Below are positions 125 to 25,122 of a stretch of DNA of 64,000 bases, piece after piece; position 1 is the stretch's first letter, and each line of letters starts with the position of its first letter. Source of the DNA: Amphiscolops sp. MND2022 (taxonomy: Eukaryota). Below the pieces are notes generated by a model that saw only the letters and a program-made list of their open reading frames with translations, was not told the origin of the DNA and ran no database searches. A program made the translations under genes and the position numbers. Location of the stretch: the NCBI GenBank assembly GCA_964187785.1, contig OZ076409.1, positions 48,858,001 through 48,922,000 on the forward strand, given 5' to 3'.

Positions 125-246
125 GTTGATGAGAGGAACTCTTGAATGTAAACTTCCTTAAAAAGTTTAGACTGGTCCGATTAACTGTTTAAACTGATTG
201 ATTACACAAAAATAGTGTGAAGAATGTTTGTATCTCAAATTGAGAT

Positions 247-369
247 TCTCAATTCCAAACTCTCACTTTGAAAAAAATTAAATTTATGGTTTCTAGTTTG
301 TATTCAACTTGAATACAAACTAGAAACCATCAATTTAATTTTTTTCAAAGTGAGAGTTTGGAATTGAGA
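247..369. repeat. Long fold-back palindrome, 61-bp arms, centre C308
   Basis: 247-307 is the reverse complement of 309-369 with one mismatch. Confidence 0.95.
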
Positions 370-1064
370 TACAAACATTCTTTTTTTGAAATCTTCTGAT
401 CTTTTTTTGATACCTGTCGTGAGCTTCAGCAAAAACTGTTCCGAAAAATTGTTTTTTCGATTAACTGTACTCTTTTGTACGAAAGAAAGGAAAGTAAAGA
501 CAAGATTAAAAAGCCATTAGTTTAAAAGTAACCCGCTTTTGAGTTTTGTAAACGAACGATTTTCGTAAATCAGGGAAGTTTACAAAAGTGTAGTTCCAAA
601 CTGAACGAACTGTTTCATTCTTTTGTTAACCATTCATCAATCAAATTTTAAGTTGTTACAGCTACTCATGGTTTTCTTTAAGGATGCGAATAAGTCCTAC
701 CTTATAAGGTAACGAAAGTTTCACTCATCATGAGTGATGATCAGCTCTCATTTCCTTATAAGGTACGCGCTGTCCCATTTCTGTGAAAAAGCTACCTTAT
801 TACCTTATTTGGTCAATACGGTGATTCATCGTTGACGAACAAGCGTGCGCGTACTACCTTATTTGGTCAGTAAGCGCCTGCTTTAAAGTATTTCAAGTTT
901 GATCGCGGTAAAATTCCAATTAAATTGGCGGTTATCAGATCTTCTCGAAGAGACCAATTTCCCTTATGAGTAGGCATTGGATTTATTTGGAAATTACAGT
1001 AGTAGCAGAAGCATACAATAAAATATGGATACCATTTGGTTGATGGCTAGACAATACGGAAAAA

Positions 1065-1169
1065 AATACGGAAGAAGCGTTGAATATGTGAAAGTAAAAA
1101 CAGTCTTTACTTCTGAGTCAGAAATAAATACTGTTTTTATTTTCACATATTCAACGCTTCTTCCGTATT
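1065..1169. repeat. Long fold-back palindrome, 52-bp arms, centre G1117
   Basis: aatacggaagaagcgttgaatatgtgaaa ... tttcacatattcaacgcttcttccgtatt, with few mismatches. Confidence 0.95.
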
Positions 1170-2047
1170 CTGAGAAGTACTGAGATTAGTGATTGTTAAT
1201 CGTGTCGCTTCTCAGAAACGTCAATTTAGCTAAGTATTGAATAATTTCTATCAAAATAGATATAAACTTATGTAAGGCGAAATATGGAGAAACATGACAT
1301 TTGGATACAAATAAATCCTAAGCCTACTCATGATTGTTCGCTATGGATGAATCAAATGAAGATGTTTGGAATTTGGCAGTCAGAATTTGTAACAGACAGC
1401 AATATCATTGACTTGTTGGTAAATATGAACGCCAATGCGAATTCTAAAATTGATGATTGACACTTCAATAGTGATTCTTTCTCACCACTGTTACAATACG
1501 CTTCTGACAGCAGAAAGTGGTTCGCAATACTAGCCCCGAGAAGAAAAGTTTAGCTCCGAAATTTATCATTACTAGAAAAGCAAAACGGTTGACCGTTGAA
1601 TCCTCTCCCTTTACAGAAGTTTCAACAGTGTTAGTAGGTAAGATATTGATAGTTTTGTTTCCTTTCCGTAGTATTCAGCTATCTAAAAATTTATTCTCTT
1701 CACTAAAAGCTTTAAATATAGTATATCTTCAAACAAACGCCGGTTTCACCTCCTTTGGAAAAACGAATAATTCTTCTATATTGAATCTGAATCAGTTACT
1801 AAGGAACTGGATATAAGTTGAGTCGGACACTTTTCAATGTCCCTCATATTATCGTCACGGCTGTGATTACGCTCACGGCAGGGACCAAAGTTCAGAAATT
1901 CGATTGAGAGTAAAAACATTTATGGTAAACAAGGTAACTCAGTAAACAAACAAAATCCTGAAATTTGGTCCCTGTCGTGAGCGCAATGTTATTAAACAAT
2001 TCATTAACTTGTCAGCATAACAACAAACACTGTCTGCCAGACAACAG

Positions 2048-2134
2048 TGGCCGACAATAGTTGATAAATTGTTTAATGCGTAAAATTAATCATTAAATTT
2101 ACGCATTAAACAATTTATCAATTATTGTCGGCCA
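2048..2134. repeat. Long fold-back palindrome, 43-bp arms, centre C2091
   Basis: tggccgacaatagttgataaattgtttaatgcgtaaa ... tttacgcattaaacaatttatcaattattgtcggcca. Confidence 0.95.
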
Positions 2135-2411
2135 GACGGTGATGATGAATTGTTTAATGATAAATTGTTTAAACTGAGTTGCAGCTAATTTTGGTCCCTG
2201 GTGTAAGCGCCTGATGTAATAAAACGTTCCTATGACTAAAATGACTCCGATGACTTCTGATCAAGGAAAACGCTAATTTGAAAAATCCATTTTGTAATTT
2301 TTGTATTTATGATACTTTTATAAAAAAAATGCAATAATCATGATCGTAATCATTTGAGGATCACACCATTTGAATATCATATGAAAAGTTACATGACAAA
2401 TGAAGTTGAAA

Positions 2412-3135
2412 TTAGGAGCAATGTTCCTTTACGTGCATCCTATAATTTTCCATTGTCTTGAAATTAACATTGGATACGAGTGTCGCGTGAACATAAATGT
2501 TGCTGTTGAAGTTTAGAGTTGATGTTTTGTCAACTTTGAATTTCAGGGACGTAATGACAGCTGTTCCATCCGCAACTTTGTCCCATTCGTTGCCCAATAT
2601 GTGGTCCCATGCTGATGTTGAAAAAGGGCCGTTGTCTTCTTTGATGGAGAATGTCACTGGGCCATTTGTGACACCGAACGCGTGAATCGTCGCATCAGTG
2701 CAAGGGGCAAAATCTTGCTTGATGTCTTTGACTCTGCTGCGTCCACTGAGGGAATTCATCAGCAAGTTTTTCAGGTTAGAATATGCCCAATACACTAACG
2801 CATGGTCGTCGTATAACGGCGCGCCAGGTGCGTTTTCAACTGCTCCCAGTCTTTTTTTCCGGAGATAACTTACAGGGACTGTTGCGTTACAGGAAGGATC
2901 GTCCTGTTTTTCGACTTCTACGAGAAGTTTCGTCTTTAAATAGTAAATAGAATTAATCTTCCAATCGCAGCCCAAAATATCAACAATGTCTCCCTTGATG
3001 ACGACTCCGGTGCTGATGGGGACACAAACTAGTTCTTTTCGTTCAAGTGGGGTACTTTTGAAACTCTGGGAAGGTCCACCAATTATGGCCTGGGATGGTA
3101 TTGCATCAGGATTACCGAATAATTTATCGTAGTCA
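2412..3135 (-). CDS. Terminal coding exon of an unknown protein (about 240 aa); may be the 3' part of the Tudor-like gene or a separate gene
   Basis: The frame of ORF 2412..2975 stays open upstream to a ttggaatag acceptor at 3136. Composition is protein-like. I could not build a phase-consistent link to the upstream exons. Confidence 0.6.
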
Positions 3136-3432
3136 CTATTCCAAAGTTAAAAAAATATTAGAAAAATGTTTGAAAAGTACTACAACTAACCCATTGAACC
3201 TATTTTGGTTGGTGATATGCGAATGATAATAGGTATTTTTGCCAAAATTGAGAACTCAATTCGCTTCGGAAAAACTGAGGATAAAGCACTTCGGAAACTT
3301 TTCCTAGTAGTATTGTCAAAAACATTTATGTATTCTACAAAAAAAATCAAATCAACTGTACGTGCTTTTTCTCGGGAGGCTGCCAACAACTTGCAACGTT
3401 AAACTTGCAATCATTCAACCCTCATAGTCTAG

Positions 3433-4426
3433 CTAAAAAATAGTTGTACCTCTGTTAAAAAAAATATTGAAGTAGTAATTTCGGTAAGCCTGCTTTACAT
3501 CAATTTTAGTCTTCTTTTTAGGCATCTTGGCGGGGATCGTGGCCTCTATTCCGCGGGTCACCAACACCGTGACTTTTTTGTCACCAAACACCGTCTTTTT
3601 GTCGCATCTTGAAGTAACGTGTTCTTCGTCAGATTCATCCGAGGACTCGGAGTCCTCGGGTTCTTCGAATTTCACTTTTTTGAAAACGGATGCTGCCTTT
3701 TGTGACGATTCGCATCGAAGCTGGTAGTATTTGATGGGGACCAAATTCACATTTTCCAGCTGTTCTTCGAAAAAAACGTTTTCCTCTATTGGTATCACAA
3801 CTGGCGATATCAACATTTCTTTACGGAAGGGATCGTTTTTCATTACGAAACCTTCTTCGATGTCCCCTATGTGTCGGACGCCGTCTTTAGCATGGGCCAG
3901 TGTGTAATGAACTTTATCGTTTCTAACACGTTTTTCTTTCATGTAGCCCAGAACATCAAGGCTCAGTGTCAGTTCAACGCTACGGCTGTAGCTTGGAATT
4001 GGCGTTTCGTTCTTTCGGATGGGCCATTTCTCTGGAAAGTCGTGGAATTTTGGGGGTGTTCTAACGACTCCTGCTGCATGTTTTGAGTTGTAATCTAACC
4101 ATTTGACTTTCGCCTGGAAACAAAAACGTTTTAAAATGTAACTCATTGAACAAAATTCATTAGCAGTAGTGATATTTCTGAAAGCAACAAATGGCAAGTC
4201 TGAAAATCGAATATCTCTAAAACAACAGCGATTTCTGAAAAAAAATTATGAGGATGAAAGTTTCTTAGATTTTTATGTATGTTTATTTGAAGAATATAGG
4301 ATGAAAATTTAATACCTCATGAGTTCGGTGAAATTCGGTGACGTAGGCTAATCGCCAAAGTCCACATTCTTCCTCGAAACATTGCAGGAGTTCTCCGACT
4401 TTGAAATTTTTCGAGAATGTCTGCAT
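3433..4426 (-). CDS. Tudor/chromo-barrel (Royal family)-like protein; exons 4426-4316 and 4113-3433 (263 aa if it ends at 3433)
   Basis: ATG at 4426, phase-0 intron (GAG|gtatt ... tttccag|GCG). Spliced N-terminus MQTFSKNFKVGELLQCFEEECGLWRLAYVTEFHRTHE|AKVKWLDY fits the F-x-V-G-E...W-x-x-A-x-V...V-x-W-x-D-Y barrel pattern. Acidic patch and basic NLS-like KMPKKKTK downstream. Confidence 0.65.
4164..4309 (+). mobile_element. 5' fragment of the MITE family seen at 22131-22816, inside an intron
   Basis: cagtagtgatatt...gaatatctctaaaaca.cagcgattt.tgaaaaa...gaaagtttcttagatttttat closely matches 22131-22283. Confidence 0.75.
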
Positions 4427-5257
4427 TGTCTGTTTCGCACTCGGTTCAAGACTCGGTACTAGTAGTGGGTTTAAGAGGACTAAATTCAGTGTCTTTGTAG
4501 TGAAAAGACTAATATTATGTTGCTCTAAGCAAGCTAAGTTAGCAAAAAGACTTCAACTTGAACTGACTTCAACAAAAATTAGAATAACTTCAACTTAAAC
4601 TTGTCACAGCCACAAAACCAAATTGGGTTAAATTGGTCCAGAATGATATACCGGCCCGCGGGCGTTAATTTGAACCAATATGGTCAAAACTTAGATTTTC
4701 GGATAATCAGTTGAATTGCACAATGGAAAAATTAGTCTATTTAATGATGCTATTCATTACTATCCAATTTATAGTAATGAATGATGCCTCCTATGATGGG
4801 GATGACCATCATTACAAGGCCCACTTCATCCAATATTCAATCTTGGTTGAAACCTAAACCACAAAACCAAATTGGGTTAAATTGTTCCAGAGTATTTTGC
4901 CGGCCCGGGGGCGTTAATTTGAACTTGATTTTCGAATAATGATAATTATGAAGTGATTAGATAATGATGCTCCGTCCTGGCTGACTTCAAGTCACGCTGA
5001 TAAGTCACGCTGATAAGTCACGCTTTAAGTTACGCTGATTGACTATCTTACGCTGCATGACTGAAATCCATTCTACCGGGAAGTGTCTCGTAATTACATC
5101 GTAAAATCGAAAAGAGAATAAGTTTTTGAATTCATCATTTGAAATCAATTCCTCGTCAAGTTCAGACCTCAATTTTATTCAAACTTCTCAACTATATTGT
5201 TGCAACAACCAGTTTACTAATCTCTTGAATTCGAGAATCAAACTGAAATTTTCCAAA
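4427..5257. promoter_or_regulatory. Putative bidirectional promoter between the Tudor-like gene (-) and the SET gene (+)
   Basis: Divergent ATGs at 4426 and 5258. A roughly 66-bp direct repeat (about 4610-4675 and 4859-4924) and four tandem copies of AAGTCACGCTGAT (about 4989-5039). Confidence 0.45.
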
Positions 5258-8917
<3,660 letters not shown>

Positions 8918-9341
8918 AACTTGAAGTGTAATCATTAGTGAAGATGATCTTAGTACAGTAGCGTGATTTTAAAAAAATGCCCGGCCTGCCTCTACACTGA
9001 GCGTTATCATAATTGATCGATTGCATATTTGCTCAATTTCAACTGATTATATATTTTCAACACTTTCAACTGATATCATATTTCAACATATTTTCAACTA
9101 ATAACTCATTTTCAAATAGTTTTTTTTAACCGAAGACAGTATTTTTCTTCCTTACATGACGATGATACGTATGATACTAGTGGAGTCTCTCATAAATTAA
9201 AAAAATGTTTTCAGGACATCCAAAGAAGTTTTTTTTGAATTTTTGAATTACGTTTCGAGTTACTTGGTTTTTTTCTCTGGGGTTAACGCTTTATCGCATA
9301 ACGAGACAACCCGGTAAAATAGGTTTCAGGCACGCAGCTGT

Positions 9342-12300
9342 ATGATCTCGGACATTTCAAAAAGTCTGTCGGAAGTTTGCAATTTGTTTTTTCTTCTTCT
9401 ACCGTGACGGTCACTTCTGGTGGCAATCACAACTTTTGAAATTGTTTTCATAATCATTAAGCCAGTATCATCGTTTTTGTGATTTGTTGCTGGTTTCTTG
9501 CTTAAACAGGTTTTGTATTTCAGATCGAAATGATACAAAAACCAATCATCACTTATGCTGGCATCAATTACGTGAAACTCACATTCCTGAACGTCTTGTT
9601 CCCGAATGTGTTCCTGCTGGAAAGCAATGACTGCCTTCTTCCCAATGATCGCAGAAAGGCTACAGATTTCCTCAAGAAGCATTTAAAAGGTTTATTTTCT
9701 TTCCTTTTTTATTCAAAAACATAACTAGAGATCGTAAACGTAATCGTCCAAAACGTGGTTGTGAGATGTAAGGAATGCACTTGAGCATAGCATTGTAGTT
9801 GATCGTTCGTGGCACGTTTTGATTCATGATTGTTGCAGGACTGAACGTAAACTTCTCTGATGTATACAAGCCCCATGGATTCAAAGAAAGGTGTCCTTTG
9901 TTGCGCGAAGACGTATTCGATTTATTGATAATATCTGCACCTCCATCATTGATTCCCTGGACGACTGAAAGAGTTGGCTATATACGACAATTTTTCCCTT
10001 CGTTGCCCATTCCAGACTCAACCTCTTTTTTAACAATTCAAATTGACGCTATTTTTCACAACAGTCATTGGAAACAGGCGTTTCGCTGCAGAATTTTTGG
10101 AGCTCTTCTTTGAAGACTATATCAGAATCAGAAATTGCATTGGGTCATTTTATTGAAACTCTCAAGCAGTTTTTCACAAGTCAAACTTTGAAAATCAAGA
10201 AAAAAAACACCTTAGTTCATAAACTTCTTCATCTATTTCTGCCAAACTTGTTTTGCCTTGAAAGGGAAGACATTCAAATGGAGATTCAATGCCTACTTAC
10301 TCTCAGTAATCCTCAGGATCTTTTAGTCAAAATACGTCGACTTATACAATGCCCTTTCATCAAATCCACCATTCTCCCTTCAAGACGTGAACTTCAAGCA
10401 ATCACAAATAAATTGAACGAAGATTTCAGATTAATACTTACTCCCAGAAGAACCCCCACTGGGTTCCGTGGTAATCTTGTTACATTTGTCAGATTCGTTG
10501 CCTGCAATTTGTATAACAAGACCAGCTTAGTCGGCTTGAGAGTCGACATTTATGGTGATGCAATGTCTCGGGGGAAAAAACACGTCGTACGAATGGCCTT
10601 CCGAATTTTGCAAAGCGGCATCAAAACTGAGCAATCCTCAACCCATGTCTTCACGTTTGCTGTGTTTGAGGTGAGTCGTTCAAGTTTTAATCTAATTTTA
10701 ACTTTATTAACTTGATTTTAACTTCATTCTAACTTGATTTCTATTGTGAGCTACATCAAAATGTTTATTGAGAACCTAATTTTGGTCCCTGTTGTGAGCT
10801 ACACTTAATAGTTTAGTGGTCACCACCACTAAAAACTCTGAGAACATTCGTGCGTTACGGTAACGCAAATCTAAATTTGGTCCCTGTCGTGAGTTACACT
10901 TAAATGATTACTTAGTAGTTGGAAAACCAATTTGGTCCGTCTTGAGCAGCACTCAAATGTTTTGTTGATATAATTCTAAATTTTTCCCTGTTGTGAGAAA
11001 CTGGAAGTTGAAATATGAATTTTTGGAATGTTTCCCAGGGTAAAGATGTGCGAATCAACCTGGAATACAATCTCGCCATGTCAGAAGTGCTTGGACGCCC
11101 TGGATGGCTATACAACGAAACAAAGGCCTTGCATGATGAAGGTGCTATACTGAGTTGCTCGGGTGATTCACCATTCCAACTGCGTCTTTTAAAAGGTGTT
11201 AGCAGTGATGTCTCTTGTCTGTCAAAGATGTGTCTTTATGTCAGTGATCCTGCAGATATTTCGAATCCACCAGTGAAACAGACAAAAAAAGACACCGCTG
11301 AATATAAGAAAGAAATGGAAGGAAGGGGGTGATTCTTCCGTCAACTGTCGATTATGCTACTGGCCGAAGAACAGAACTGATCATTGACATCAACGAATGC
11401 ATCCCAAAAGACTCTCTCATTTTTCTCAAATCCACTTTCAATACATGCCCTGATTTGCTGCATATGGTTGTCCGTTCAGTCGAAAGTGACTTGAAGTTGC
11501 ATGTGGACTCGATGTTGCTGTTGAAAGACCATGCAGCAATATGTAGACTCGAAAGTAACATAACGGAACGAAATGTGAAACCGCCGAGATTCAAGTTTGA
11601 GATCGTTGAAAAACTCTGCAAGGCTGTATCTCTCAGTTTCAGAGACGCCGAAGTCATAATATCCGACTGCAACAGAATCAGCGACTATGGCCCAGAATCA
11701 GACTGCCCAATTTTTGAAGGTGTGTATTCATTCGAAACACCTCATGTCTACAAAGCTGACCAAACAACCTCTACAACGTCTTATAACGTGTTGATATCAT
11801 TGGTTGATGGGTTGGAGACATCTTTCACAAAAGGAGTGGGTATTTCTGTTCGGAAACTGGCTGACTTCCAATTCCAATCTCTTTACCAGTTACTTGATTT
11901 GCTTCGACAGAGAGAATTCAAAGACATTTCAAAGTGTAAAGATCTCTATGAGATTTATTACCAGTCAACTTTATGTCTTTTCGGTGATCGTGCGTTGACG
12001 CCATACAAATTGAAACTGGATATTTTACTCAGACTTTTTGAGAAGGGTGAGCTTCTGTCTCCATTTTATTACATGACAGAAGGAACTGAAAAAAGCCACC
12101 ACACGGCAGCCAAAGACTACAATACGAAGACAATGCGTGATGGTGGCAATGATGCTTGGAACATGTCATCCAGTTATCTCGATATTCAGTTTTCCTTCTA
12201 CCGTGCAATTGATTTATGTTCTTCAAAGTCTTCGACACTTGAATCTTACCGGAAGTTGTATGGAAAAACCGACGTGACAAAGACGTATCTTGAAATTTGC

Positions 12301-12867
12301 TGTGAACCCATTCCAGAACCTGAACTTGACTATCTTAGAACTGAAGACATGTTTAGAGGTATGCACTTTGTCATTCTTGGAACATATGGTCACCTGAAAG
12401 AAACTCAAGCGAGTCTTGAGAAGAAGATCACTGAAAATGGAGGAAATGTTGTTTCCAATGTAGACATCATCAACAGAAGCAAGCTGAATTTTTTGAGCCA
12501 TCACTATTGCATTTTACCAAATCGAAATTGTATCGACGCATTCATTAAAGGTCAACAAGGTAAAGAAAAAGCTGCAACGAAGGCGCTTTCCAATACGATA
12601 CTCGGTAACTGGATTTACTTGAACGCTGAATTTGTAATCGCCTGTGTACAGAAGAAGTCTTTGATTGATCCCAAAGGCTATGTTTTTGAAGTAGATGAGT
12701 CTGCGAGAGCCAAATTCAAAACGATGAAGTACATATCTATGGCCCCACAATTACAACGTCAATCAAACCCCCTACGACATGGTTCATTAACTTACCACAC
12801 AGCAATGCGGAAGTACAAGAACGCACTAAAAAAGGCCACATTGAAGAGAAAACTAGACGACGTTTAA
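9342..12867 (+). pseudogene. RAG1/Transib-like DDE transposase with C-terminal BRCT domain (about 940-950 aa when repaired); exons 9342-9374 (tentative), 9524-9689, 9839-10670, 11039-12867; two 1-nt frameshifts
   Basis: Motifs in RAG1 order: IYGDAM (D, 10557), FAVFE|GKD, GVSSDVS (D, 11207), PDLLH (H, 11461), TPYKLK, YMTEGTEKSHH (E, 12088). Compare RAG1 SCDGM, GTGYDEK, IDALH, TNYFHK, WASEGNESGNK. BRCT pattern MFRGMHFVILG..LEKKITENGGNVV..FVIACVQKKSLIDPKGY at about 12343-12686. Introns are phase-consistent. Frameshifts fall near T5 at 10052-10056 and G5 at 11325-11329. Confidence 0.75.
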
Positions 12868-13207
12868 TACCTAAAAACTTACTTATTTTATTACTAATTC
12901 AGTAGACAAGGTCCCTTTGACCGCTTCATTGTCAATTCAGTGCTATCTACTAGGTGAACCAAAGAAAATGGAATGTACAAAAATTTTTCGAGTTTACATT
13001 CCCTCTGTTACCTTATTTACTATTGAATGATCTATGACAGTTGTCTCAGGAATGATCTATGAGGACGTATGACTTCCTTGACTTCCTGGAATAGTGTGAC
13101 TTGTTGTGAGTTGTTGGATGTATATATTTGACAATCATTTTATAGTTAATTTCATACAATATTGAATGGTGTATAACTTATGAGCGAATTTTTTCAGTTG
13201 ATATCAA

Positions 13208-16200
13208 ATGGCAACACTGCCGACCACGCCATCAACGTCTCGTCGAACGACACCAGCGAAAGTCCCATGCGGCCAAGGTTCGATAACAATTTTTTTGTGA
13301 TCAAGCTGTAACGTAATCAAGCTGTAACTTTTTTCACGGAAAAGTTTAATCTGACATATGGCATTCCTTTTAGGCACTTGTGACGTTGTGGACAAGCTGT
13401 CCAACATCCTACGCCACCGCAAAGTCTGTCCCCGAATGCCACGAGAGCAGTTCAAGCTCATGGAGAGAACGTGCCAGCTCTGCGGCCAGATCATTTCCGC
13501 CAAAAAACTGCTGAAGAAGCACTACAATACAAAGTATTGTAAGGAGCAGCAAAAGCGGAAAGCAGAAGGCCTGCCTACCCGAATGTACCAGTACGGTTAG
13601 TCAATACAATGTATGTTAAAAATTGATCAACTTGTAACATTTTAAACTCAATGATTTTGAAAAAAGTCTAGGTCTCAAACAAAAAGTGTGTTTTTATTCA
13701 TGTAACTTCTATGTTACAGCAGCTGCAAAAGGCTTGACGCGGAGGCCTAACTTATGCTACGGCAGAGGTTGTGGCAAGTCATATGTTTGCCCTTATGACT
13801 TGCGCGTGCACCTTTTGAAGAATCCTCAATGCCAGGAAGGAGCGAATGTGAGTGCCTGTCCTATTTTTTTCTCTTTAAGAACACATGTTGAATGATTTGA
13901 TTGACCATTTGATTCTCGAAACGCCGTGTTTTAAACGGTGACAATGTGACTGGAAATCCGAATGAGTCATTTTATCGTGGCAACTGTTTAGGCTGCAGTA
14001 TCTTTGGGCTCCGATTCGTCTACTAGTAGCAACACTGACGAGCGATTCAGGCCAGAAGATTTCAACCACATTCCTTCTGATGTGTTTGGGTCTGATGGAT
14101 TTTTCAAGTTCGCGATGGAAGTGCCCCTCGACTACAAGTTTCCTGTAGCTCAATGGGAAGGCAACGTTGACGACCATGTCGTCAAATTCAATTCCCTGAT
14201 GAGACACAGTGTGCCTCTGTTGTGGCGTGGAGGTGTCAACCATTGCCATGGTTTGAAGCTGCCTCAAGTGGAAGAACTCGCTTTCACTGAAGTTGTCCAA
14301 GAGCTTCTAGTCCCCCAGAAGCTACAAGCAAGTGCAGCAACCATCAATGTCAAGTCGGCAAAACTTGGAGAAGTAAGTCTTTGGTAGAATTACTTTCAAT
14401 TTGAAGCTTGTATTTTTCGTAAAATATCTGGAACAACTGCAATTTGATCCCTGGCGTGAGCTCATTTTCCAACTTGGACAAGTCTTTGGTAGAATTACTT
14501 TCAATTTCAAATTTTCAAGTAATGCTTCAAGTTGAAGCTTGTATTTTTCGTAAAATATCTGGAACAACTGCAATTTGATCCCTGTCGTGAGCTCATTCTC
14601 CAACTTGGGCAAGTTGAATTTGTCGAACAACTGCATTTGAACTATTCTAACAATGAGAAAGTTGTCCGTCTTATTCCCGTCTTAGTCACTTTATGATCAT
14701 TTCATTTCAGAGTCGTGACCTCAGTCTCGACGAGTTCAAGCAGGAGCTCATCAACGCCGACAGAAGCAGCGTTTACTATCCTTTAAACGCTATAGACATC
14801 GCCATGCAGCCAAAGGTAAACAACATTGAATGAGCTCCTTTGATTTGATGGAAAACGCAAATCCACTGAAAAACGACTTTTCTTTTTCTGTTTTTCCCCA
14901 ACCCCCTGTTTGCTAGTAGTTGCGTACAAATTCGACTTTGAGGATTTTATTCAACATAATGCACATTGTTTTGAAACAACTTCAACTTATATTGATTTTT
15001 TTGTCTTTTCAGTCCATCTACAGCGTGCCAACGATGATAAAAAAGTCGTCAGTGAACCACCTTGTGGACGAGCTGGTGAGTAAGTCAGCAGAACCGTTCT
15101 CAGTAGCGACTTCATACTACTTGCTGATCTCCAACGATGGTCGTCAAACAACTTGGCACACGGACTTCAGTTCAACATCTGTCTTTTATACAGTCTTGAC
15201 TGGGTCCAAGACCTTCTTTCTGGTTGCGCCAACTGAAAACAACATGAAGTTGTTCAATGCCTGGTCCAAACAAGAATGGGACGACATGTAAGTTGAATTT
15301 TTTCACCAAGGAATTTCAGCTTTTGTGTTCATCTATTTTTGTATTTTTTGCATCATTTTGCATCACGGGCCATCATTTCCGTACGTGTTTTCATTGTATT
15401 TGCGAAATTTTCAACTTTCAATGCACTATATTGTTTTTGCATCGCCGAATATTTTAAGAATAGTCGCTTAGAGTTCCAACAGTTTTCGTTTTAGGCCAAC
15501 ATTTTTTGGATGCCACAAAAGACTGGAGGGGGGTTGCCTCAGGGTTACTCTTAATCCGGGCGACGTTTTCGCCATGCCGTCTCAGTACATCCATACAGTC
15601 CTCACAAGTGGAGACTCTGTGGCAATAGGGACGAATTTCCTTTCAGAAGGTCATTCGAACCAATTCATAAAGGCGATCATTGAAGAAGACTCCACCAGGG
15701 AGCATGAGAAGTTTCCGGGCATGTTGGAAATGCTAGCTATTTTGATGCTCAAAGCATCAGAGAGATGCATGATAACTCCGGACTTCCTTCGTCTTCACAG
15801 AGCCATTGAGAATCGATATCAAGAAAGTGAAGCTGTTGCTGTGAGTTGTATTTTTTAGTTCACAATCGTTTAGAATCAAACTATGTTATCGAATTAAGTA
15901 TTTGTATAATGAAGCCGTGTTGTGACTCACAACAGGGACCAAAACTGAAATTGGTAATCATCATGAATAATGTTGATGATGACGTTGTGGCTCACGACAG
16001 GGACCAAAATTAAAGGTGGTAATGATTACCAATTTTAATTTCGGTCCCTGTCGTGAGCCACAAGGTCATCATCAGCATTATTTGTTGATGATCAACAAAG
16101 TTGATCAAATAGCTTGGTGAGTTATCACGAGTTTTGTTTCAGATTTGCCCCGAATTCAGCAAGGAGAGACTCGTTTACAATATTTGCTCGCGCAAAGACT

Positions 16201-16774
16201 TCGTAAACGATGTTTGTGTCAGCGCTTTCACGGAAACGGCCTCAAAAAGGGCATATCTTCTTTGCCCCAAGCCTTGCTTCAGAAGGAGGAACTGGTTTAC
16301 AAACGAGGACGGCGTGAGGGTCCCGAAGGAAGCAATTTCTGAGGAGCACCTCACTTTCTTTTGCCGAAAACCTGATGTTGACGAGCCGAATCGTGATATT
16401 TTAATCAGCTATGAGGAAGCCATCACGTATGTTCACCCGCGACCGTCACAAACTGTCAGAGGTTTGCACAAAATGCCGAAAAGAAAAACCCTCGTTCAAG
16501 ACCGTGGTAAGTTTGCTTATTTCAGTTACATCCTGGTTGTTTCGTCTTAATATACATAGTGGTAATGTAAGTGATAATATTCAACTCAAAACTGGTCACC
16601 TGGTTGAACATCCGTAAGGCTTACATTTGATTTTCGTATTTCCTAAAAAGACTTCAAAATGAAATTAATGGAGTGGTAATCGAATTCAATGTTTTTGTTT
16701 CAGAATTCAGACCATCTACTGATCGTTACGTTGCTTCGATCATGAGCCACCATGTCCCTGCATACAGCTTGTAG
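13208..16774 (+). CDS. Three zinc fingers plus JmjC histone demethylase (KDM2/KDM7-like); 9 exons: 13208-13277, 13374-13595, 13720-13847, 13992-14372, 14711-14815, 15013-15287, 15495-15840, 16143-16506, 16704-16774 (653 aa)
   Basis: All 8 introns are GT-AG and phase-consistent; total 1962 nt. JmjC motifs YLLISNDGRQTTWHTDFSSTSVFY..GSKTFFLVAPT and GDVFAMPSQYIHTVLT..VAIGTNFL keep HxD...H and the 2-OG-binding T and K. N-terminal C2HC-type fingers CGQGTC..RHRKVC, CQLC..KHYNTKYC and CYGRGC..VHLLKNPQC. Confidence 0.9.
14374..14636 (+). repeat. Imperfect tandem duplication in a JmjC-gene intron; each unit carries the 19-bp motif
   Basis: ttgaagcttgtatttttcgtaaaatatctggaacaactgcaatttgatccctg.cgtgagctcatt occurs twice, 131 bp apart. 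Confidence 0.9.
15967..16081. repeat. Fold-back palindrome, 57-bp arms, centre G16024, in a JmjC-gene intron
   Basis: ataatgttgatgatgacgttgtggctcacgacagggacc ... ggtccctgtcgtgagccacaaggtcatcatcagcattat. Confidence 0.93.
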
Positions 16775-16942
16775 TTGCGTACAGACTGAGTTGTGCTTAA
16801 GAAGTTCTCGATCATTGTTAACTGAACATGTTGAACTTTCTTGTCTCCGAGTTATTTGTTGTGCTCAGTAAGTTGTACACTGTGGCTCGGTATAAACTTG
16901 TAGCTTGAAAAACTGCTCTGGATTTTTCGAATGACCGTCAAC

Positions 16943-17302
16943 CAGGGGTGTTAAATATTGCATTGCAATACTATTGCAATACTAATAAAACAATCTTTTG
17001 TTATTCTGAATTTTGTTGAAACAATAATTGCAATTATTGTGTCTATGAAAAAGATTGTTTGAAGAACCAATCAAATCAATTTGTTGATCAAATTAACATC
17101 CGAAAATTGTTCGTTGATCATTATTAGTTTGACTGAAAAGTCCGCCAAATTGGAAGTATTTGGTACCCAACTCATGTCTCCGAATTCTTTCCTTATTGTG
17201 AAAAATCAACAATGTATTGTATTTGATAACGTTCTGAAAATAATTATTGTATACAATTTTATTGCAATTATTGTGACCTAGAATAATTTTTTAACAACCC
17301 TG
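16943..17302. mobile_element. hAT-type MITE (360 bp)
   Basis: TIRs CAGGGGTGTTAAA / TTTAACAACCCTG; 8-bp TSD CCGTCAAC at 16935-16942 and 17303-17310. Confidence 0.92.
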
Positions 17303-18633
17303 CCGTCAACAACCTGGTATTTTTTGTTCATAGCAAATTCAGCAAAACATTCAGCAAATTATTACGGCAAAGTCCAATTACCTCATAGTCTAGTTAAAAT
17401 CTTTATTTTAACTAATAATTTCACGGTAAAAAAATTGTTGTTGACCATTATTCAATTATTAGGTTACTATTCATTCAATAAGTTAATGTGTACAATTTAC
17501 CTTCGATTTATAGTGCATTCAAAGTTTGTACAGCCTTGATCGTTTGTAAGTTTGTAATGTTCTGAATTGTATCAACTGTGTTTTGGACAATTACTGTCGG
17601 AAATGTCGAGTAGTTGTTCCCAAAAAAAGAGGGACATCTACCGTCGGAAATATCGGGTGGTTGTTTCCAAAAAAAATATCAAATACCGTCAAAATCAATC
17701 ATTGATGGCCGCCGGAAATCATCGGGTCATCGGAAGGGAGTTTCCAATTAACTTCGCCTTTGTGCTCCCTTGCATCGTATGTTTTCTCTTTCAGTACAGG
17801 CCGAGTATGAATAATAGAAGCAAAAGCCTCTTTGTTAAGGAGAAAAACAGTGTTTAAGGTTGTTTAAGAATAGAAAAACGGTCAAACGTCCCAATTCAGA
17901 TTCAGTTGTCTGTAACTTTTTCAATTTTCGTCTGAAAAATTTCAAAGTTAAACTAGTGTAAACTAGAAAAAAATTTAAGAATAGTTTCCTTCTGACAATT
18001 TTACAAATTTTCAATCGATTCCGAAAAAATCGAGCCTGAAAATGCTCGGGGGGTGTTTTCCTAATCACAGTACTAGAGCTCTCAACCAATGAAATGAACA
18101 TGTGGGCATCAATTAGCCAATGATATCTATTCGTTCGTTCCGCCGGCGGCTGCTGTTTTTCAAAAGTTGATAAAAGTACTTCAAGTTGACTCAAGTTTGT
18201 TATGTTTGCTATAGACCAAGACTCAAGTTGTTTTAATTATTCTTGACGCAGCTCGGAGAAGCAACATAAATACAGGTTACCTTTTGATCCGTCGTGAGCA
18301 AATATAAAACAGAGTTGCTAAACCGTATTTTAAGTTAAGTACCAGCTCTGAGAAACTGTCTCTGTTTTCAACCACAGTATCCTTCTTTTCTTAGGATGTG
18401 TTTTCGGAAAGAAAACAACTTTCATTGAATATTGTATTTTGAATACAAAAATAGCACCAGTTTTATAATGGAATTTATGAACATTATAAAATCACAAAAA
18501 AATAATTGAAAATAAAAAATTTATCTCTTTTAGAGCAAATAAATAATGAGTTTTGAAACTTTAAAGTTTCAAAAATAGTGGAAAAGTCGTTGAAATCGTT
18601 TCAACGAAACTTTGAGTCCCTCGGGTTCAGACA

Positions 18634-19215
18634 TTATTTCAGCCTGAGCAGGCATCCTTGTTTCCTGCAGAGTGGGCACTTCACCCAAAGGGCACGATCA
18701 GTGCTTTCCCTGTGAATCACAGTGATCAAAATTTTCGAACGATATCTAGAATGAGTTTGTTTTGTAACCACGTGTGTACCAAAAATTTCAGGAATACAAA
18801 AATGTAAAGGACACGCCTCAAAAAATTGATCAGTGAAAATTATCAGAAAGGAAAAGCGAAAACAGCTTCAATAACAATTTTTCAAAGCAAAGTTCTGTGA
18901 AACTTACCTCTCAAGCACTTTGATCCAGGCTTGACGGCACTGATTGCATATCGCGTGTTTATCATGGAGAATCCAAAAACGCGAAAAGATCTTCTCTCCA
19001 CAGACAGCGCAAAGCATTTCCAGTTGGTTAATGTGTTTCAGGTGGTCAATAAGTACAATGATTTTTGAAAAGATATATCAGTCTTGTCACACGGTTGTTT
19101 GAAGATCGAATGGCCAACAATCGGCCCGGGACATATAGAACACATCGTACGAAAGATTTGAACTTTATTTTGTCATTATCTTGTTTCTATGTACGAACAA
19201 CTGGCTTTGTTTCAT
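18634..19215 (-). pseudogene. Spliced RING-finger gene not on the ORF track; exons 19215-18908 and 18709-18634; three in-frame stops upstream of the RING
   Basis: AG|gtaagt ... ttcacag|G gives MLCAVCGEKIFSRFWILHDKHAICNQCRQAWIKVLERESTDRALWVKCPLCRKQGCLLRLK*. The same frame from ATG 19215 contains TAA, TGA, TGA. A 61-aa product from ATG 19017 remains possible. Confidence 0.75.
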
Positions 19216-19516
19216 GACTTGACAACTTGCAAGTCCTTTTAATCCTTTCACTTAGTAACCACCTAGTTAATTTATAACCTCTGTACCTGTAACAAATAAC
19301 CGTCTCCACTTATTATTTGGTTTAGTAAACCAACGCGGTACTTCGGTAGTGCCACTTTCATTCATTTCAAAATAAGATGATAGTCAAGATGATTCTTTCA
19401 TCTCAGTTATTATGTCGATATAATTGTATTTGTTTCAATGGTTTCAAAAAATGAAATAATTAATACTTTACAGAATTGAATGACGTACATATGTATGTTT
19501 ACAAAGTTTATGGAAT

Positions 19517-19714
19517 TAACAAAGTTCTTTCATTTATCACTACTAAAAAATTAATAACGTACATATGTGGTTTTGATCCCTGTCGTGAGCAACATCAAGT
19601 TGTAACAAATAGTCTAACAAAGTTCATTCATTTATCACTACGAAAAAATTAATAACGTACATATGTGGTTTTGATCCCTGTCGTGAGCAACATCAAGTTG
19701 TAACAAATAGTCTA
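19517..19714 (+). repeat. 98-bp tandem duplication carrying an extended motif module that recurs near 23221, 23324(-) and 24441
   Basis: aaaaattaataacgtacatatgtggttttgatccctgtcgtgagcaacatcaag is near-identical at five positions. Confidence 0.92.
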
Positions 19715-19794
19715 TACGAATCTAAAACTCTGTTTGAGTCTAAAACTCTCTATCAATCTGAAATGTCTATTACCAAATCTCCAAGTACTTAAAC

Positions 19795-20116
19795 GATTAT
19801 TTAATTACCACTGCAGTAAATTTAGAATTGAGGCGTGTTGAATAAGGACAACTGCCAGTGAAGGTGCCACAGGCTGTTCAGTGAAGGTTTGTCGAAAACT
19901 GCTGAGAAGTGCTTACACCGTGTAAGCATTAATTAACACCATTAACACCGTGACGATTAATTAATTACCACTGCAGGAAAGGGTAGATTTGAGGCATTTT
20001 AATTATGACTATTCAAATTTTGTCGATAACCGCAGCAAAGTCCTTACACGATTAACTAATTACAATTACGAATTGAGGCTTTCTAATAATGATTTCTGAA
20101 TTTCTGTCGAAAACTG
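19795..20116 (+). repeat. Three diverged direct repeats upstream of ORF 20317
   Basis: taattac...ttgaggc...tgtcga.aac.g units near 19795, 19955 and 20050. Confidence 0.7.
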
Positions 20117-20316
20117 AAAAGTCGATTCAGTCAAACCTTTTACAACGATACTGTCAACTTGCTTTCATATCTCTCGCAATCATCAACTTCTGTTTTCATC
20201 AAATCCTAATTTCATAATCAACTTCTGAACTTGTCAAAAACAGCAAAGTCAAATCAGTCAATTCTTTCGCATCAATATTATCAACCTTCTTTCTCTCGCA
20301 ATCATCAATATCTATC

Positions 20317-20754
20317 ATGTTCGATCCCGCAGCAATGCCAATCAGGTCGTGTATTCGTCCAATAGATGAAATGATCTCAAACTGTGGACTACCACACAGA
20401 AAAAACGTGCGTTTTGCTGACTCAGCACCAATCTCGGACTCAACCACCAATCAACTTGAAACAACTCCCACATATCCGAGAGCTTGGAGAATCAAAAGAA
20501 GGGCACCCATTCCTGAAACTCCAACTCCACTGGCACCCACTCTAATGCACCCACTCCACCAAAAAGCAGTCACTACGGTAGGATCAAAAACAGTGAGGTT
20601 CTCTTTCATAGAAAGGGCTGTATCACCGAATGGAGAAGTATCAGAGTCAGTCATTTCCTTCAATGACTCGGAAACCAATCCTTGTGACGAATACTGGAAA
20701 ACTGGGGCTCTCGACGACAGGCCGTACATAATGAACTGCCGAACAACACGATAG
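20317..20754 (+). CDS. Small (145 aa), probably disordered protein with two RVxF PP1-docking motifs
   Basis: Intronless ATG-to-TAG ORF, Pro/Thr/Ser-rich, with RKNVRF and KTVRF and an upstream RSCIR (SILK-like) segment. Confidence 0.55.
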   Translation: MFDPAAMPIRSCIRPIDEMISNCGLPHRKNVRFADSAPISDSTTNQLETTPTYPRAWRIKRRAPIPETPTPLAPTLMHPLHQKAVTTVGSKTVRFSFIERAVSPNGEVSESVISFNDSETNPCDEYWKTGALDDRPYIMNCRTTR

Positions 20755-20763
20755 AATATAAAG

Positions 20764-20822
20764 TTATTATTCTGCTCTTCTAGTACAGTTGACACAACTG
20801 TACTAGAAGAGCAGAATAGTAA
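20764..20822. repeat. Fold-back palindrome, about 28-bp arms, centre C20793
   Basis: tattctgctcttctagtacagttg-aca-caactgtactagaagagcagaata. Confidence 0.92.
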
Positions 20823-20835
20823 TTTTAAATGTAAC

Positions 20836-21201
20836 CAGGGCTACCGAAAAAATAATGGATCAAACCATTATCTTTGATAAATAATTTATTTCTAGTATAT
20901 TTCCATTCAGATAATTTATTTCTGTCATTCGAAAAATACCATAATTATTTCGGAATTTTCCATTATTTTAGAAATAAAATGATCTACAAAGCAAATAAAG
21001 GCGACGCTACCACCAAGGCAGCTTGCCGTATGTAGGCTATTGTAAATTTCTAACATATGCGAAATTATTTCATATAATTTAAAATTATGGCCATAATTTA
21101 TTTATTTGAGAGAATATTGTTATTTATGGGCATTAAATCTAAAATAAATCTATAAATATAAAAATAATGAAAAAAACTAAAAGAATTTTTCGGTAGCCCT
21201 G
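20836..21201. mobile_element. hAT-type MITE (366 bp)
   Basis: 16-bp perfect TIR CAGGGCTACCGAAAAA; 8-bp TSD AATGTAAC at 20828-20835 and 21202-21209. Confidence 0.95.
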
Positions 21202-21237
21202 AATGTAACATCGGTTCTAAAATCATTTCTGAATGTC

Positions 21238-21720
21238 GACGAAACAGTTTGGCTTCAGTACAGGGGTGTTCATTATTGTATTGTAATTTAAATCTAAGCC
21301 TACGAAAATCAATAATTCAATTTTCCACAAAAATCAATAATTGAAATTATTGTGCTCAAAAACACACTGATGAAGAAACTTAAATTGCTCTGCGAACTTT
21401 GAAAGTTTCTTTCTATAATAAGTCATCATAAATCTCGCTCGAGAGGATTTTTTTCAAGTAACCAACTTTTTCGATTTGTTAATGTTACACTGCAATTAAT
21501 AATTTCCCCCACAGGATTACGAGCAATCAATAATTGTTGGAAAACAGAGACGTAAAATCAATAATTGTAATTGTTTAACTTAAATTGAATTGCAATAATT
21601 GTTCTTTGCAATAATTAGTTGAACACCCCTGCTTCAGTATCTCAGTATCGGATGCGAATTTTACCTCCGGGGTAAAATTCGCATCCGATACTGAGATACT
21701 GAAGCCAAAACTGTTTCGTC
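21238..21720. repeat. Fold-back palindrome (centre C21668) whose left arm is split by the hAT MITE
   Basis: 21632-21665 pairs with 21671-21704. The right arm continues gaagccaaaactgtttcgtc, matching gacgaaacagtttggcttc at 21238-21256 on the far side of the MITE. Confidence 0.88.
21261..21631. mobile_element. hAT-type MITE (371 bp), related to 16943-17302
   Basis: TIR CAGGGGTGTTCA; 8-bp TSD CTTCAGTA at 21253-21260 and 21632-21639; internal CAATAATTG-rich repeats. Confidence 0.95.
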
Positions 21721-21879
21721 CAATCAGATTTTAGAACCAACCAACGAGTCGTCATCTGGAAGGACAAATTTTTCTGATGATCAACTTGCAAAGCGAACAA
21801 AAGATCGGTCGTCTCGACACGAACTTCTAGACCTATTACACAGTCTGAAATCCAACCTGTCAAACTTGAAAGCGAATGG

Positions 21880-23130
21880 TCAATGTGTGAACAACTTCTT
21901 GACTCAAGGACGACCTTCGGTGGACGAAATTGAAGATCTTTCCTACCCACTTGAAGAATGGATGGAGGAAATTTAACCCTTGGTTTCCCACTTCAATGCC
22001 CAAAACTTCGCAACCCTCAGTGAGGAGAATTTGAAGCAAGAACAAAACAAATGCCTGGAACTTCAAGAAGGGGTTCAAGCTCAGATAATCTCAATTGGCA
22101 AGTTACAGAAGAATATGTTGAGGCCTTGTACAGTAGTGATATTATTAAAAGCAACAAAAGGCAAATCTCAAAACCGAATATCTCTAAAACAGCAGCGATT
22201 TTTGAAAAATGATAAAGTGAAAGTTTCTTAGATTTTTATCTAGTTTACAAATATGTTTGTTTGAAGACTATGCGATGAAAATTGTAGAAGTTACGATAGG
22301 CCATTTTTAGCCAAATTTAGGTCAAAATTGAGGTTTTTCTCACTTTTGGGCTACTTTTCCCCAAAATTGTTGAAAAAATTTTTGTTCAATTGACCCCCCT
22401 GATTTAACTGAAGCTCCTGATATGTTTTGATTTAGAAATCATCTTAAAATCGTAAAGAAAATGCGCTGTAAAATTGAACTTTTTCGAAAATACATGTATT
22501 AAGATACGATTTTGAAATATAACCACTTAAAACAAGCTCGTACTAATACAATTTACAATATTTTCGAGAAAAAATTATATTGTCAGATTCAAAATGTTTG
22601 GGAGAATTTTTCTGTTAAAATTGTTTTGAAATCAAAAAATTGTAAGTGGGTCAAAAATTCAAAAAACTAAAAAATGATGTTTTGGAAATCGCTCTCGACC
22701 AATGAAATGAGCGCGTGAGACGTTATTTAGCCAATGAGATTTGTTTATTTGCTCTCTTTCCGCGTGCTTTGTTGCTTAATAATATAGTTGTTGTAGTAAT
22801 AATAATATCACTACAGTACAAAACCATTCAAAACTCACAGATTCAGAACAGCACACAAGATAACGAATCAGTGGCTAGTTTGAGCGACCGCGTGATCGGA
22901 ATCATGAACAGATACAACGCCATTTCTTCCAACGTGGAGGAAAGAGCGCAACAACTGTATTTCGACATAGAGGAGTCCTTACAGGTATTGAGATTGTGAT
23001 TGTTATGTATCCGAAGAAACTGAAAGAACAGCTGAAGAATCTATCGCAAGTTAGAACAAATCTGGAGGACACCGGTGCCGAAATTGACAAGATCAAGGCC
23101 AACGCTGAGCAAATGTTGAAGAGTAATCCT
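21880..23130 (+). pseudogene. Disrupted coiled-coil-like gene interrupted by a TA-flanked MITE and frameshifts
   Basis: Removing the MITE joins EEYVEALY|KTIQNSQIQNSTQDNESVASLSDRVIGIMNRYNAISSNVEERAQQLYFDIEESLQ. Helical E/Q/L-rich fragments lie on both sides in shifted frames. Confidence 0.5.
22131..22816. mobile_element. Tc1/mariner-type MITE (686 bp)
   Basis: TIR CAGTAGTGATATTATTA / TAATAATATCACTACAG (one mismatch), flanked by TA on both sides. Confidence 0.8.
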
Positions 23131-23190
23131 CACAATCGAATTTATTATTTCGAACAATATATTGTCAATTCATGATATTATTCATTTATT

Positions 23191-23407
23191 AAATAAAAAT
23201 ATAATTGATATTATTCAATAAAAAATTAATAACGTACATATGTGGTTTTGATCCCTGTCGTGAGCAACATCAAGAAACGTTGTAACTGGAGTAACTATCA
23301 TAGTTACTCCAGTTACAACGTTTCTTGATGTTGCTCACGACAGGGATCAAAACCACATATGTACGTTATTAATTTTTTATTGAATAATATCAATTATATT
23401 TTTATTT
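23191..23407. repeat. Perfect fold-back palindrome, 108-bp arms, centre C23299
   Basis: 23191-23298 is the reverse complement of 23300-23407; each arm holds the 19-bp motif. Confidence 0.96.
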
Positions 23408-23682
23408 CTGATGATAAAAAAATTATGATGAAAAAAATTATATTTTTAATTTATGATAAATTGAACAAGTAATTTTTGTCGAGCACAAATTCTAGCTGAG
23501 ATTACAAATCTCAACGAAAAAAACTTTTGCCCATTTTGATGTAGTTTTAAAGAGGCTCTCAGTTTGGGGATCACATAGTGTCGCCCGTAACAAGACCCAC
23601 GACGCGAACGTGGCCTCTGAAGGGTCTCAAAATCTAATTTACAAATTCTACAAAATTATACTAACTACACTTTTACAAAAAT

Positions 23683-23898
23683 TTAATTATACAAAATGCT
23701 ATTTACAGGTAATCTACAGTAAGGACATCTAACGAGGTCTGCACTCGCTAAACTATCTAAATAGTGTTTTATACACTCTCTACAAGCTAAATGTAATTTA
23801 TGTTCTAGGTGAAAACTTTGTAATTCTACTATTCTAAAGTTTTCGTAGCAGATCATGCATTCTTTATTCTTCGAAGCAGCAGCTTTCTTCACCCTCAT
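23683..23898 (-). pseudogene. RING-finger coding segment; upstream part appears frameshifted or decayed
   Basis: CMIC-x12-HLEHKLHLACREC...VRCPYCR. Upstream sequence to about 24139 has in-frame stops and a probable frameshift near 23865. Confidence 0.75.
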
Positions 23899-24169
23899 CG
23901 ATTGGGCTATTCAGAATGTTGGCTGTTGATTTAGAATGGCGAAAGGATAGAAGGAAGAATAAGAATAAGAATGAAATTTTAAAGACTTGTAGAGATTTTA
24001 GAGATTTGTATAGAGCGAGGGAAGAAATGAGTGAAAAAATGAAAGACTTCACGAAAAAGTTTCAATTTCGTAAATCCTTTCACGAACCATGCCGGGACTG
24101 AACGAAATTTTCACCGATACCGAACACCTGTGACGTCATAATTAACTGTATTGCATTTCTGATGCGCGC

Positions 24170-24302
24170 TAACCTTTCAGCTATATCGCCTTGAAAGAAA
24201 TCAATTACCATTCGCAAATGTTGAAGAGTCACTCTTCAACATTTGCGAATGGCCCATTCCCGGGGAATTGATTCCTTTCAAGGCGATATAGCTGAAAGGT
24301 TA
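24170..24302. repeat. Fold-back palindrome with an internal bulge, centre C24230
   Basis: taacctttcagctatatcgccttgaaag...ccattcgcaaatgttgaagagt-c-actcttcaacatttgcgaatgg...ctttcaaggcgatatagctgaaaggtta. Confidence 0.93.
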
Positions 24303-25122
24303 TAATAAATAAAAATAAATAAAAATAAAAATAAATGAATTAAAATATACAAATAATGAATTCGATTGTGAGGATTCATGATATTATTCATTTATTCAAT
24401 CGATTAAAAATTAATTGATGTTTATTGATATTATTCAATAAAAAATTAATAACGTACATATTTGGTTTTGATCCCTGTTGTGAGCAACATCAAGAGAAGT
24501 TGTAACAAATAATCTATACGAAGTTGAAACTTTATCAAAACGAAAACAGTAGTTTATGGAATACCGATCTTGAATTATTGAACTAAAAACGAAGTTTGGA
24601 CCATGTGCCTTATCCTCCCTCAGATAAATACTGTTTCTTATCCAACAACACCCCCCCATCCAAAACTTCCCAAACAAATGAAAGTATGTCTCATAATGAA
24701 GGGGCGGTTGCTTCATTGAACTTGGTAATTTTGGTCCCTGTCGTGAGCACTTCCTGTAGTCAGATTTACTGTTTATGCGATTTGATACTGTGTAGGCGAA
24801 TCAAGCAGTGTAGTTACGAGTCGGCGTGTGTAGCTCACCAGTAAAAACCCGTAATTGCCAGAACTATGTGTAAATATGAGATGCACAGTGTAGTTAGTCA
24901 AATTGCTTAAACTAGTCATATGGTGTAAGCTAGTCAATTACTGTACTATCCAATGGTGTAAACTAGTCAACGTACGTAGCAAAATCAACGAGTGTAACGG
25001 CCTATCAATGCGCGTAATGTGAGAAAAGTGTAAAACTTCCAAAAAAAAATATTCGCGCTCTGATTGGACAAAAATCGAACTAGCAGGATCCTGCTAGTTC
25101 GTACCGGCATGTGTATCGTAAT

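Follow-up and report, generated by a model that had tools for sequence, protein, structure and literature searches.

A family-specific 19-bp motif in giant transposons of Amphiscolops sp., predicted to be read by their own zinc finger–JmjC protein

The first 25 kb of a 64,000-nucleotide stretch of the genome of Amphiscolops sp. MND2022 (contig OZ076409.1; hereafter the window) hold a gene cluster that, when compared with four further long copies of its contig, proves to be a single 26,927-bp cut-and-paste DNA transposon with terminal inverted repeats (TIR), family F1. Its non-coding DNA carries a 19-bp motif, TTTGRTCCCTGTCGTGAGC, which is very probably the binding site of the fingers of an element-encoded zinc finger–JmjC (ZnF–JmjC) protein, because the motif and the ZnF–JmjC gene have been lost together in a related family and because the fingers fit the motif. 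The motif would act as a self-tag, and it seems likely that the ZnF–JmjC protein strips repressive histone methylation from tagged copies and so keeps them active. An initial annotation of the window had read it as the site by which an element-encoded binder recognizes its own element, with the ZnF–JmjC protein and a tyrosine recombinase-like (YR-like)–SET protein as candidates. The proposal is supported by the family specificity of the motif, of which sister families have their own versions; among the candidates, co-variation of fingers and bases as well as co-loss favour ZnF–JmjC, while the related family F3 keeps the YR-SET gene without the motif.

In plants, transposable elements (TEs) are known to counter silencing in a sequence-specific way, through proteins that are not enzymes and that read DNA by obscure rules. 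Here, predicted reader and candidate eraser are parts of one protein, and the reader appears to follow a code decipherable from sequence. With eight natural protein/motif pairs and one family that has lost both, the co-evolution of a putative TE anti-silencing protein with its target becomes testable by swaps of single residues and bases. If the proposal is true, histone marks join DNA methylation among the targets of anti-silencing, the phenomenon probably reaches an animal genome, RAG-fold transposons gain a group whose target duplications are 2 bp long, and targeted histone demethylation acquires a compact natural model.

Distribution of the 19-bp motif

Between positions 406 and 24748, the motif occurs on both strands in 21 copies at ≤3 mismatches, eight of them exact, compared with a mean of 0.01 and a maximum of 1 in shuffled controls (n = 100). 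This bears out the annotated count of at least 21 copies in both orientations, and the accompanying statements have likewise held: the last copy ends at 24748 with no further copy in the window (none after 24.75 kb had been claimed), none of 23 sites overlaps an exon on an approximate exon map, and local tandem or inverted multiplication is found at five site groups (7351/7411/7479, 14443/14574, 15990/16040, 19572/19670, and 23247/23333). The 23 sites comprise the 21 in the window and two exact copies at -1177 and -1083, which lie upstream of it because the element begins at -1803. The exon map covers 32% of the element, and the chance of avoiding exons is 0.66 per site, or ~0.007 over ~12 clusters. 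In an unbiased scan, 22 sites fall into 14 distinct, unrelated flank contexts, and in a de novo repeat scan the motif is the top repeat of the window element (Table 1).

Genome-wide, there are 2,051 exact copies (reversed-pattern control: 0). The term private, under which the motif had been annotated, is therefore wrong for the locus and apt for the transposon family: all 20 isolated sites checked belong to the element's own fragments, miniature derivatives or older subfamilies, which are 72-99% identical to it, although these 20 were hand-picked from the first 100 of the 2,051 listed, which counts against the breadth of the result. In this sample, enrichment is confined to element copies, as had been expected of a genome scan, and an origin in an unrelated miniature inverted-repeat TE (MITE) or short interspersed element (SINE), which the annotation had named as the opposing case, was not found and is rejected. 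A subterminal repeat bound by the transposase is disfavoured, given that the sites are mostly internal and that F3 is without the motif.

Table 1. Positions of the element, its genes and its motif copies (window coordinates unless a contig is given).
Feature	Position	Strand	Remarks
Window part of F1 element	1..25123	+	true left end -1803 = G000:C1:48856197
Motif, intergenic	406..424	+	1 mismatch
Three motif copies, downstream of g1	1871..2208	1871-, 1964+, 2190+	
Gene g1	2412..4245	-	no Pfam family; also in F2, F3, F4, F5, H
Motif, upstream of YR-like exon	5935..5953	-	2 mismatches
YR-like–SET gene	6216..8917	+	one 807-aa frame in family F3
Internal copy of element's left end, in YR-SET intron	7210..7320	+	in copies B and D, not A and C
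Three motif copies, YR-SET intron	7351..7497		inverted and tandem duplication
Transposase, predicted RAG1/RAGL fold and C-terminal BRCT	10047..12867	+	more 5' exons likely
Two motif copies, transposase intron	10781..10894	+	
ZnF–JmjC gene model	13208..16774	+	9 exons, 8 GT-AG introns, 653-aa open frame
Finger 1	about 13268-13429	+	intron-split
Finger 2	13472-13540	+	
Finger 3	13755-13832	+	
Two motif copies, ZnF–JmjC intron 4	14443..14592	+	tandem duplication
KDM2/7-like JmjC core	15013-15840	+	H-x-D and distal His
Three motif copies, ZnF–JmjC intron 7	15925..16058		
Two exact motif copies	19572..19688	+	98-bp tandem duplication
Two exact motif copies	23247..23351		inverted duplication
Two subterminal motif copies near right end	24467..24748	+	
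Right TIR, CATTACGATACACRTRCCGGTA	25102..25123	-	22 bp
F3 loci (G000)	C12:55.20-55.27 Mb, C4:23.27-23.36 Mb, C3:70.99-71.02 Mb		

The ZnF–JmjC gene and its motif across sister families

In the ZnF–JmjC gene model, three C2HC fingers precede a JmjC domain that has its metal ligands. The finger signature is recognized through Pfam zf-C2H2 matches in sister families and through PDB finger matches, and finger 3 forms one exon with the region before the JmjC core in families F4, G, H and I. The best PDB matches of the JmjC exons are PHF8, KDM7 and KDM2A; the core exon is closer to PHF8/KDM7 (E 3e-9) than to KDM2A (1e-7), while the second JmjC exon matches KDM2A only. The 653-aa model contains neither a PHD (as in KDM7) nor a CXXC or F-box (as in KDM2) partner domain. 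The H-x-D is kept in 8/8 families, and between families the nonsynonymous divergence of the ZnF–JmjC exons (pN 0.25-0.37) is below the synonymous (pS 0.53-0.84); YR-SET is likewise under purifying selection. Among young F1 copies, the ZnF–JmjC substitution counts are too small to show selection. A metagenome scan with the alignment of finger 3 and the JmjC N-terminal region found no relative, and no description of a transposon-encoded zinc finger–JmjC protein was found at the level of titles and abstract starts, a coverage that leaves out subscription journals, Repbase Reports and supplements.

Eight families in the same genome bear a motif (F1, F2, F4, F5, G, H, I, and K), and a related one, F3, is without ZnF–JmjC. 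The transposases of F2, F3 and F4 are about 70% identical to that of F1, those of F5, H, I and K about 28-32%; family G has fingers, JmjC and motif with no transposase or SET match in 30-40 kb. Elements of H and I also end in CATTAC. Each family has its own version of the motif: TTTGYTTACTGKCATGATC in F2, TTTACRRMCTGTVWTGAGC in F4, TTTKGTAYYYACCGTGAGT in F5, TTTGTCATCGGTCGRGAGC in G, TTTGGTTCCAATYRWGGGT in H, TTTGGTMCCARTCRYGAGT in I, and TTGKAACGACTCCRGGAG in K. At ≤2 mismatches, the region of each of the eight families contains its own version 5-33 times, and cross-family matches are 0 in 51/56 off-diagonal cells (maximum 6). In F1, F2 and F4, the own version is present in the orthologous transposase, SET and JmjC introns of each family. 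The exact F2 version is found in 537 and the H version in 652 genomic copies (control 0 for both). Two degraded loci (C11:5.38 Mb and C5:4.59 Mb) carry the F4 version, and at three others (C10, C147, and C5:43.34 Mb) flank-aware and k-mer scans gave no clear motif. In family I, the top repeat (TTTGGTGGAATCC...) lies between long flanks that are identical from copy to copy; it was classed as a nested repeat and put aside.

In F2, a 61-bp unit from the left end that includes the F2 motif has grown into a satellite, with 89 sites in the 10 kb read and an array of ≥24 kb (L100, G000:C2:2054400-2060000, and on to at least 2078499). Such an array would act as a sink or large target for the F2 protein.

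The motif versions change in step with the predicted recognition residues of the fingers. The finger-1 helix reads K/R-N-R (positions -1, +3, +6) in families with GAG at motif bases 16-18, and V-N-R in F2, where these bases are GAT; the F2 Val at -1 was left unscored in the code fit. In family H, the helix is R-H-R and GGG is found at 14/20 sites, a change (Asn→His, GAG→GGG) that had been noted as a prediction before the 3' half of the H motif was seen. GAG is the triplet in families I, G and K, whose helix is R/K,N,R, also as noted beforehand. Asn at position +3 of finger 3 occurs in K alone, and K alone has T at base 11. In the zinc finger code, His at +3 and Arg at +6 each specify G and Val at +6 is neutral (PMC1920264), and RSDNLVR is paired with GAG and TSGNLVR with GAT in a published table (PMC5260015). 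Across 34 registers of the C2H2 code fit, finger 1 scores 22.4/23 contacts at top-strand bases 16-18 (next 13.6) and finger 3 scores 13.4/15 at bottom-strand bases 12-10 (next 9.9). The linkers of the F1 fingers are ~14 and ~30 residues, not of the short TGEKP type, and the triplets predicted for fingers 1 and 3 do not adjoin each other and lie on opposite strands. When family labels were permuted, with each permutation allowed its best register, the combined score of fingers 1 and 3 was equalled in 44/40,320 cases, in a test that ignores kinship, with only about four independent paired changes.

Family F3 provides the complementary observation. It is sister to F4 (96/97) and keeps the transposase, with an open frame, as well as YR-SET and g1. 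Only a JmjC scrap, lacking the His and containing a stop, is left; fingers were not found, and 76 and 82 kb of F3 sequence hold 0-1 copy of any motif version; the motif is missing even from the orthologous transposase intron. F3 carries a different repeat, TTCATCGTTTTTACATCG, consisting of two CATCG half-sites 11 bp apart in many contexts; this repeat may be part of F3 itself or of an element nested in it.

Several points weigh against reading the motif as the binding site of the fingers. Kinship and the small number of independent changes reduce the force of the permutation test; GAG is the ancestral state, which leaves H as the only strong test among the predictions; the finger-3 register was picked after seven families had been seen; and the two works cited for the code cover only part of the table used. 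Finger 2 fits no register (38,944/40,320 permutations do as well), and the two fitted fingers explain at most 6/19 motif bases. The versions in I and K ranked below other repeats and were chosen with the shared skeleton known. F3 represents one loss event, seen in three rearranged copies crowded with nested elements, and its own repeat has no known reader. On the supporting side, the motif columns of five F1 copies are less variable than the flanks (18/1,961 cells, 0.9%, versus 196/9,623, 2.0%), a figure biased by the definition of the sites on one of these five copies.

Proposed function, rivals and known systems

In the mechanism we propose, the fingers would bring the ZnF–JmjC protein to some two dozen motif sites per cognate copy, finger 1 reading top-strand bases 16-18 and finger 3 bottom-strand bases 12-10 as the zinc finger code predicts, and the JmjC domain would there erase repressive methylation, namely H3K9me1/2, H3K27me2 or H4K20me1 if it is KDM7-like; selection would favour additional sites gained by local duplication. 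These are the marks erased by PHF8 (PMC10349869). The CpG observed/expected ratio is 0.85-0.98 and CpG transitions amount to 1.24% compared with 1.00% at other C/G, which by this indirect measure gives no sign of methylation; the lack of CpG depletion or clear hypermutability suits histone-based rather than DNA-methylation-based silencing. On balance, we also lean towards a wider interpretation, though with less assurance, in which giant RAG-fold transposons act as self-addressed epigenome editors with at least eight insulated anti-silencing channels in one genome, their fingers re-coded in step with each family's private 19-bp intronic address. They would then be the transposon-side mirror of host zinc finger repressors, maybe paired with their own SET writer.

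Among other explanations of the motif, a reader other than the fingers is very unlikely. Transposases can activate sequence-specifically (bioRxiv 10.64898/2026.08.24.746577), all cargo genes diverge along with the motif, and the YR-like domain of the selectively maintained YR-SET protein could bind DNA, so that the finger correlation might reflect shared ancestry; but F3 retains transposase and YR-SET without the motif, the fingers and motif of family G occur with neither gene matched nearby, and ancestry alone gives no prediction of which base changes to which. A host transcription factor site, or a neutral by-product of local duplication or of a small insertion element, is hardly probable at all: the 14 flank contexts have only the 19 bases in common, one host factor leaves a different version per family unexplained, and the isolated copies checked are all element-derived, even though many copies do come from local tandem or inverted duplication and the F2 unit has grown into a satellite.

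If the fingers do read the motif, the outcome may still differ from activation. Self-restraint, by a KDM2-like H3K36 demethylase or a Polycomb-recruiting adaptor serving autoregulation and copy-number control, is rather unlikely, although activity of the KDM2 type, on H3K36me2, could have a repressive instead of an activating effect, which speaks against our proposal. H3K36 methylation is located in gene bodies, many motif sites are intragenic, and the second JmjC exon matches only KDM2A; PHF8 itself is able to repress (PMC10349869). Set against this are the closer match of the core exon to PHF8/KDM7, the activating nature of the TE precedents known, and the abundance and youth of F1 (at least 125 copies, 92-100% identical), compared with three close copies of the gene-less F3 among the matches listed. 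A mechanical or non-histone role, as a TnpA-like pairing or excision cofactor or as a JmjC hydroxylase with another substrate, is unlikely as well. Motif sites do lie within ~650 bp of both ends, and two motif-less miniatures with 2-bp target-site duplications (TSD), of 680 and 368 bp, are each single-copy in the genome and maybe deletions in place, so that the attempt to show the motif dispensable for transposition failed and no motif-less derivative is shown to transpose; transposition may thus require the motif, which makes a purely chromatin role less secure. However, the sites are mostly internal and intronic rather than terminal, a separate short repeat, KTAGTCAA, clusters near the left end (4/9 sites), the F3 transposase frame is open without ZnF–JmjC gene or motif, and the likeness of the JmjC domain is to histone demethylases.

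The closest precedents for the proposed self-addressed anti-silencing come from plants: both VANC and TnpA recognize non-coding motifs specific to their family and switch the elements that encode them back on (PMC5735166; bioRxiv 10.64898/2026.08.24.746577). By analogy, the system works like VANDAL/VANC without being a member: common to both are a TE-encoded protein, a family-specific short non-coding motif, tandem multiplication and co-divergence between families (PMC5735166). VANC, from Arabidopsis MuDR-like elements, is not a known enzyme, binds a site of 8-9 bp and brings about DNA methylation loss (PMC5735166), whereas here a predicted C2HC reader array is fused to JmjC, the motif has 19 bp, and the transposase has a predicted RAG fold. 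Unlike VANDAL, the element is not Mutator-like, with a 2-bp TSD, a 22-bp TIR and RAGL/RAG1 as top fold match. The open reading frames scanned gave no VANC-like Pfam family, g1 not having been compared directly with VANC. The VANC analogy drawn in the initial annotation thus stands for the family-specific motif with its own versions in sister families, and is qualified in that CpG gives, by the indirect measure above, no hint of methylation for such a protein to erase. Spm/CACTA TnpA similarly is an accessory TE protein with clustered family-specific motifs that activates cognate copies; its sites are terminal, it is transposase-derived, it needs host ROS1/DML glycosylases, and H3K9me stays (bioRxiv 10.64898/2026.08.24.746577). 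In F1, by contrast, sites occur throughout the element and the candidate eraser is within the same polypeptide.

Chromatin enzymes are known as transposon cargo, with TET/JBP in fungal Plavaka, hAT, IS3EU and others and SET in oomycete HarbingerS/MuDR (PMC12730594), and F1 resembles these elements in carrying an epigenetic enzyme. PlavakaB has 2-3-bp TSDs and CATCA..TGATG ends (PMC12730594), while F1 has mostly 2-bp TSDs and CATTA..TAATG, one base different; the likeness is one of ends and TSD length. The accessible part of that source does not describe JmjC cargo, zinc finger addressing or a dispersed self-motif for those enzyme-carrying transposons (PMC12730594). The JmjC core, with its H-x-D...H, is like those of PHF8/KDM7 and KDM2; unlike these proteins, ZnF–JmjC lacks PHD and CXXC, has three long-linker C2HC fingers, and is transposon-encoded and apparently transposon-aimed. 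An architectural analogue is PRDM9, in which a fast-changing zinc finger reader is joined to a histone-modifying enzyme.

The transposon and its other genes

The F1 element of the window is inserted within a 183-bp satellite, with an AT/AT target duplication, and its termini read CATTA..TAATG. The TIR has 627 exact matches in the 1.07-Gb genome. The TSD is 2 bp in 4/5 long copies and in 10/12 further end pairs, and 3 bp in the other two. The at least 125 F1 transposase copies were scored among 869 candidates.

By its predicted model, the transposase has a RAG1-type catalytic core fold, like RAG1, ProtoRAG (RAGL) and Transib. The model, built from 49 relatives (predicted local distance difference test, pLDDT, 84), best matches BbRAGL (Z 11.5, root-mean-square deviation 3.3, 248 aligned), followed by RAG1 (Z 11.0) and HzTransib (Z 8.6); an earlier fold from 12 sequences (pLDDT 47) matched only BRCT. 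D51, D147, E355, H150 and H362 are invariant in the 49-sequence alignment. Pfam matches are of BRCT type only, and Pfam and PDB profile searches of the transposase did not find RAG or Transib by sequence. Transib and RAGL elements have a 5-bp TSD and TIRs starting with CAC. The present element differs from them in the ~11% identity, the lack of a Pfam RAG1 match, the C-terminal BRCT, the 2-bp TSD and the CATTA ends, and no RAG2-like gene was seen in it. In the window copy, the last transposase exon is split into two frames near 11308-11332, while most listed copies have a 617-aa frame. The transposase profile matches 338 protein clusters (50% identity) at E ≤ 0.001, so the group extends well beyond this genome; ten of these examined sit on short contigs.

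Gene g1 is kept across families whose transposases are only ~30% identical. For the N-terminal part of YR-SET, the likeness to integrase/DUF3504 is a lead from language-model features only, and a search of longer proteins with the YR-like exon found nothing. The SET domain is closest to SETD8/KMT5A, with NY in place of NH. Its last exon contains a (CTA)105 run (8556-8870) that encodes in-frame poly-Thr, is longer in copies A and B and is nearly absent in D. A RING-finger-like frame at 23686-23910 (-), with a Pfam zf-C3HC4_3 match below the cut-off (E 2e-4), lies in a segment common only to copy B, and a second small Cys/His-rich exon is seen at ~18910-19010 (-); both are possibly further cargo.

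Besides the internal left-end copy of Table 1, another is found at 5095 (-). Several loci contain 12.2-kb derivatives with clean duplications of 2 bp, and several internal copies of the ends are present in F4 elements. The 183-bp satellite around the element is long (window 25123-50100; L001 1-8196), with apparent higher-order periods of ~369 and ~740 bp, and copy C likewise adjoins it.

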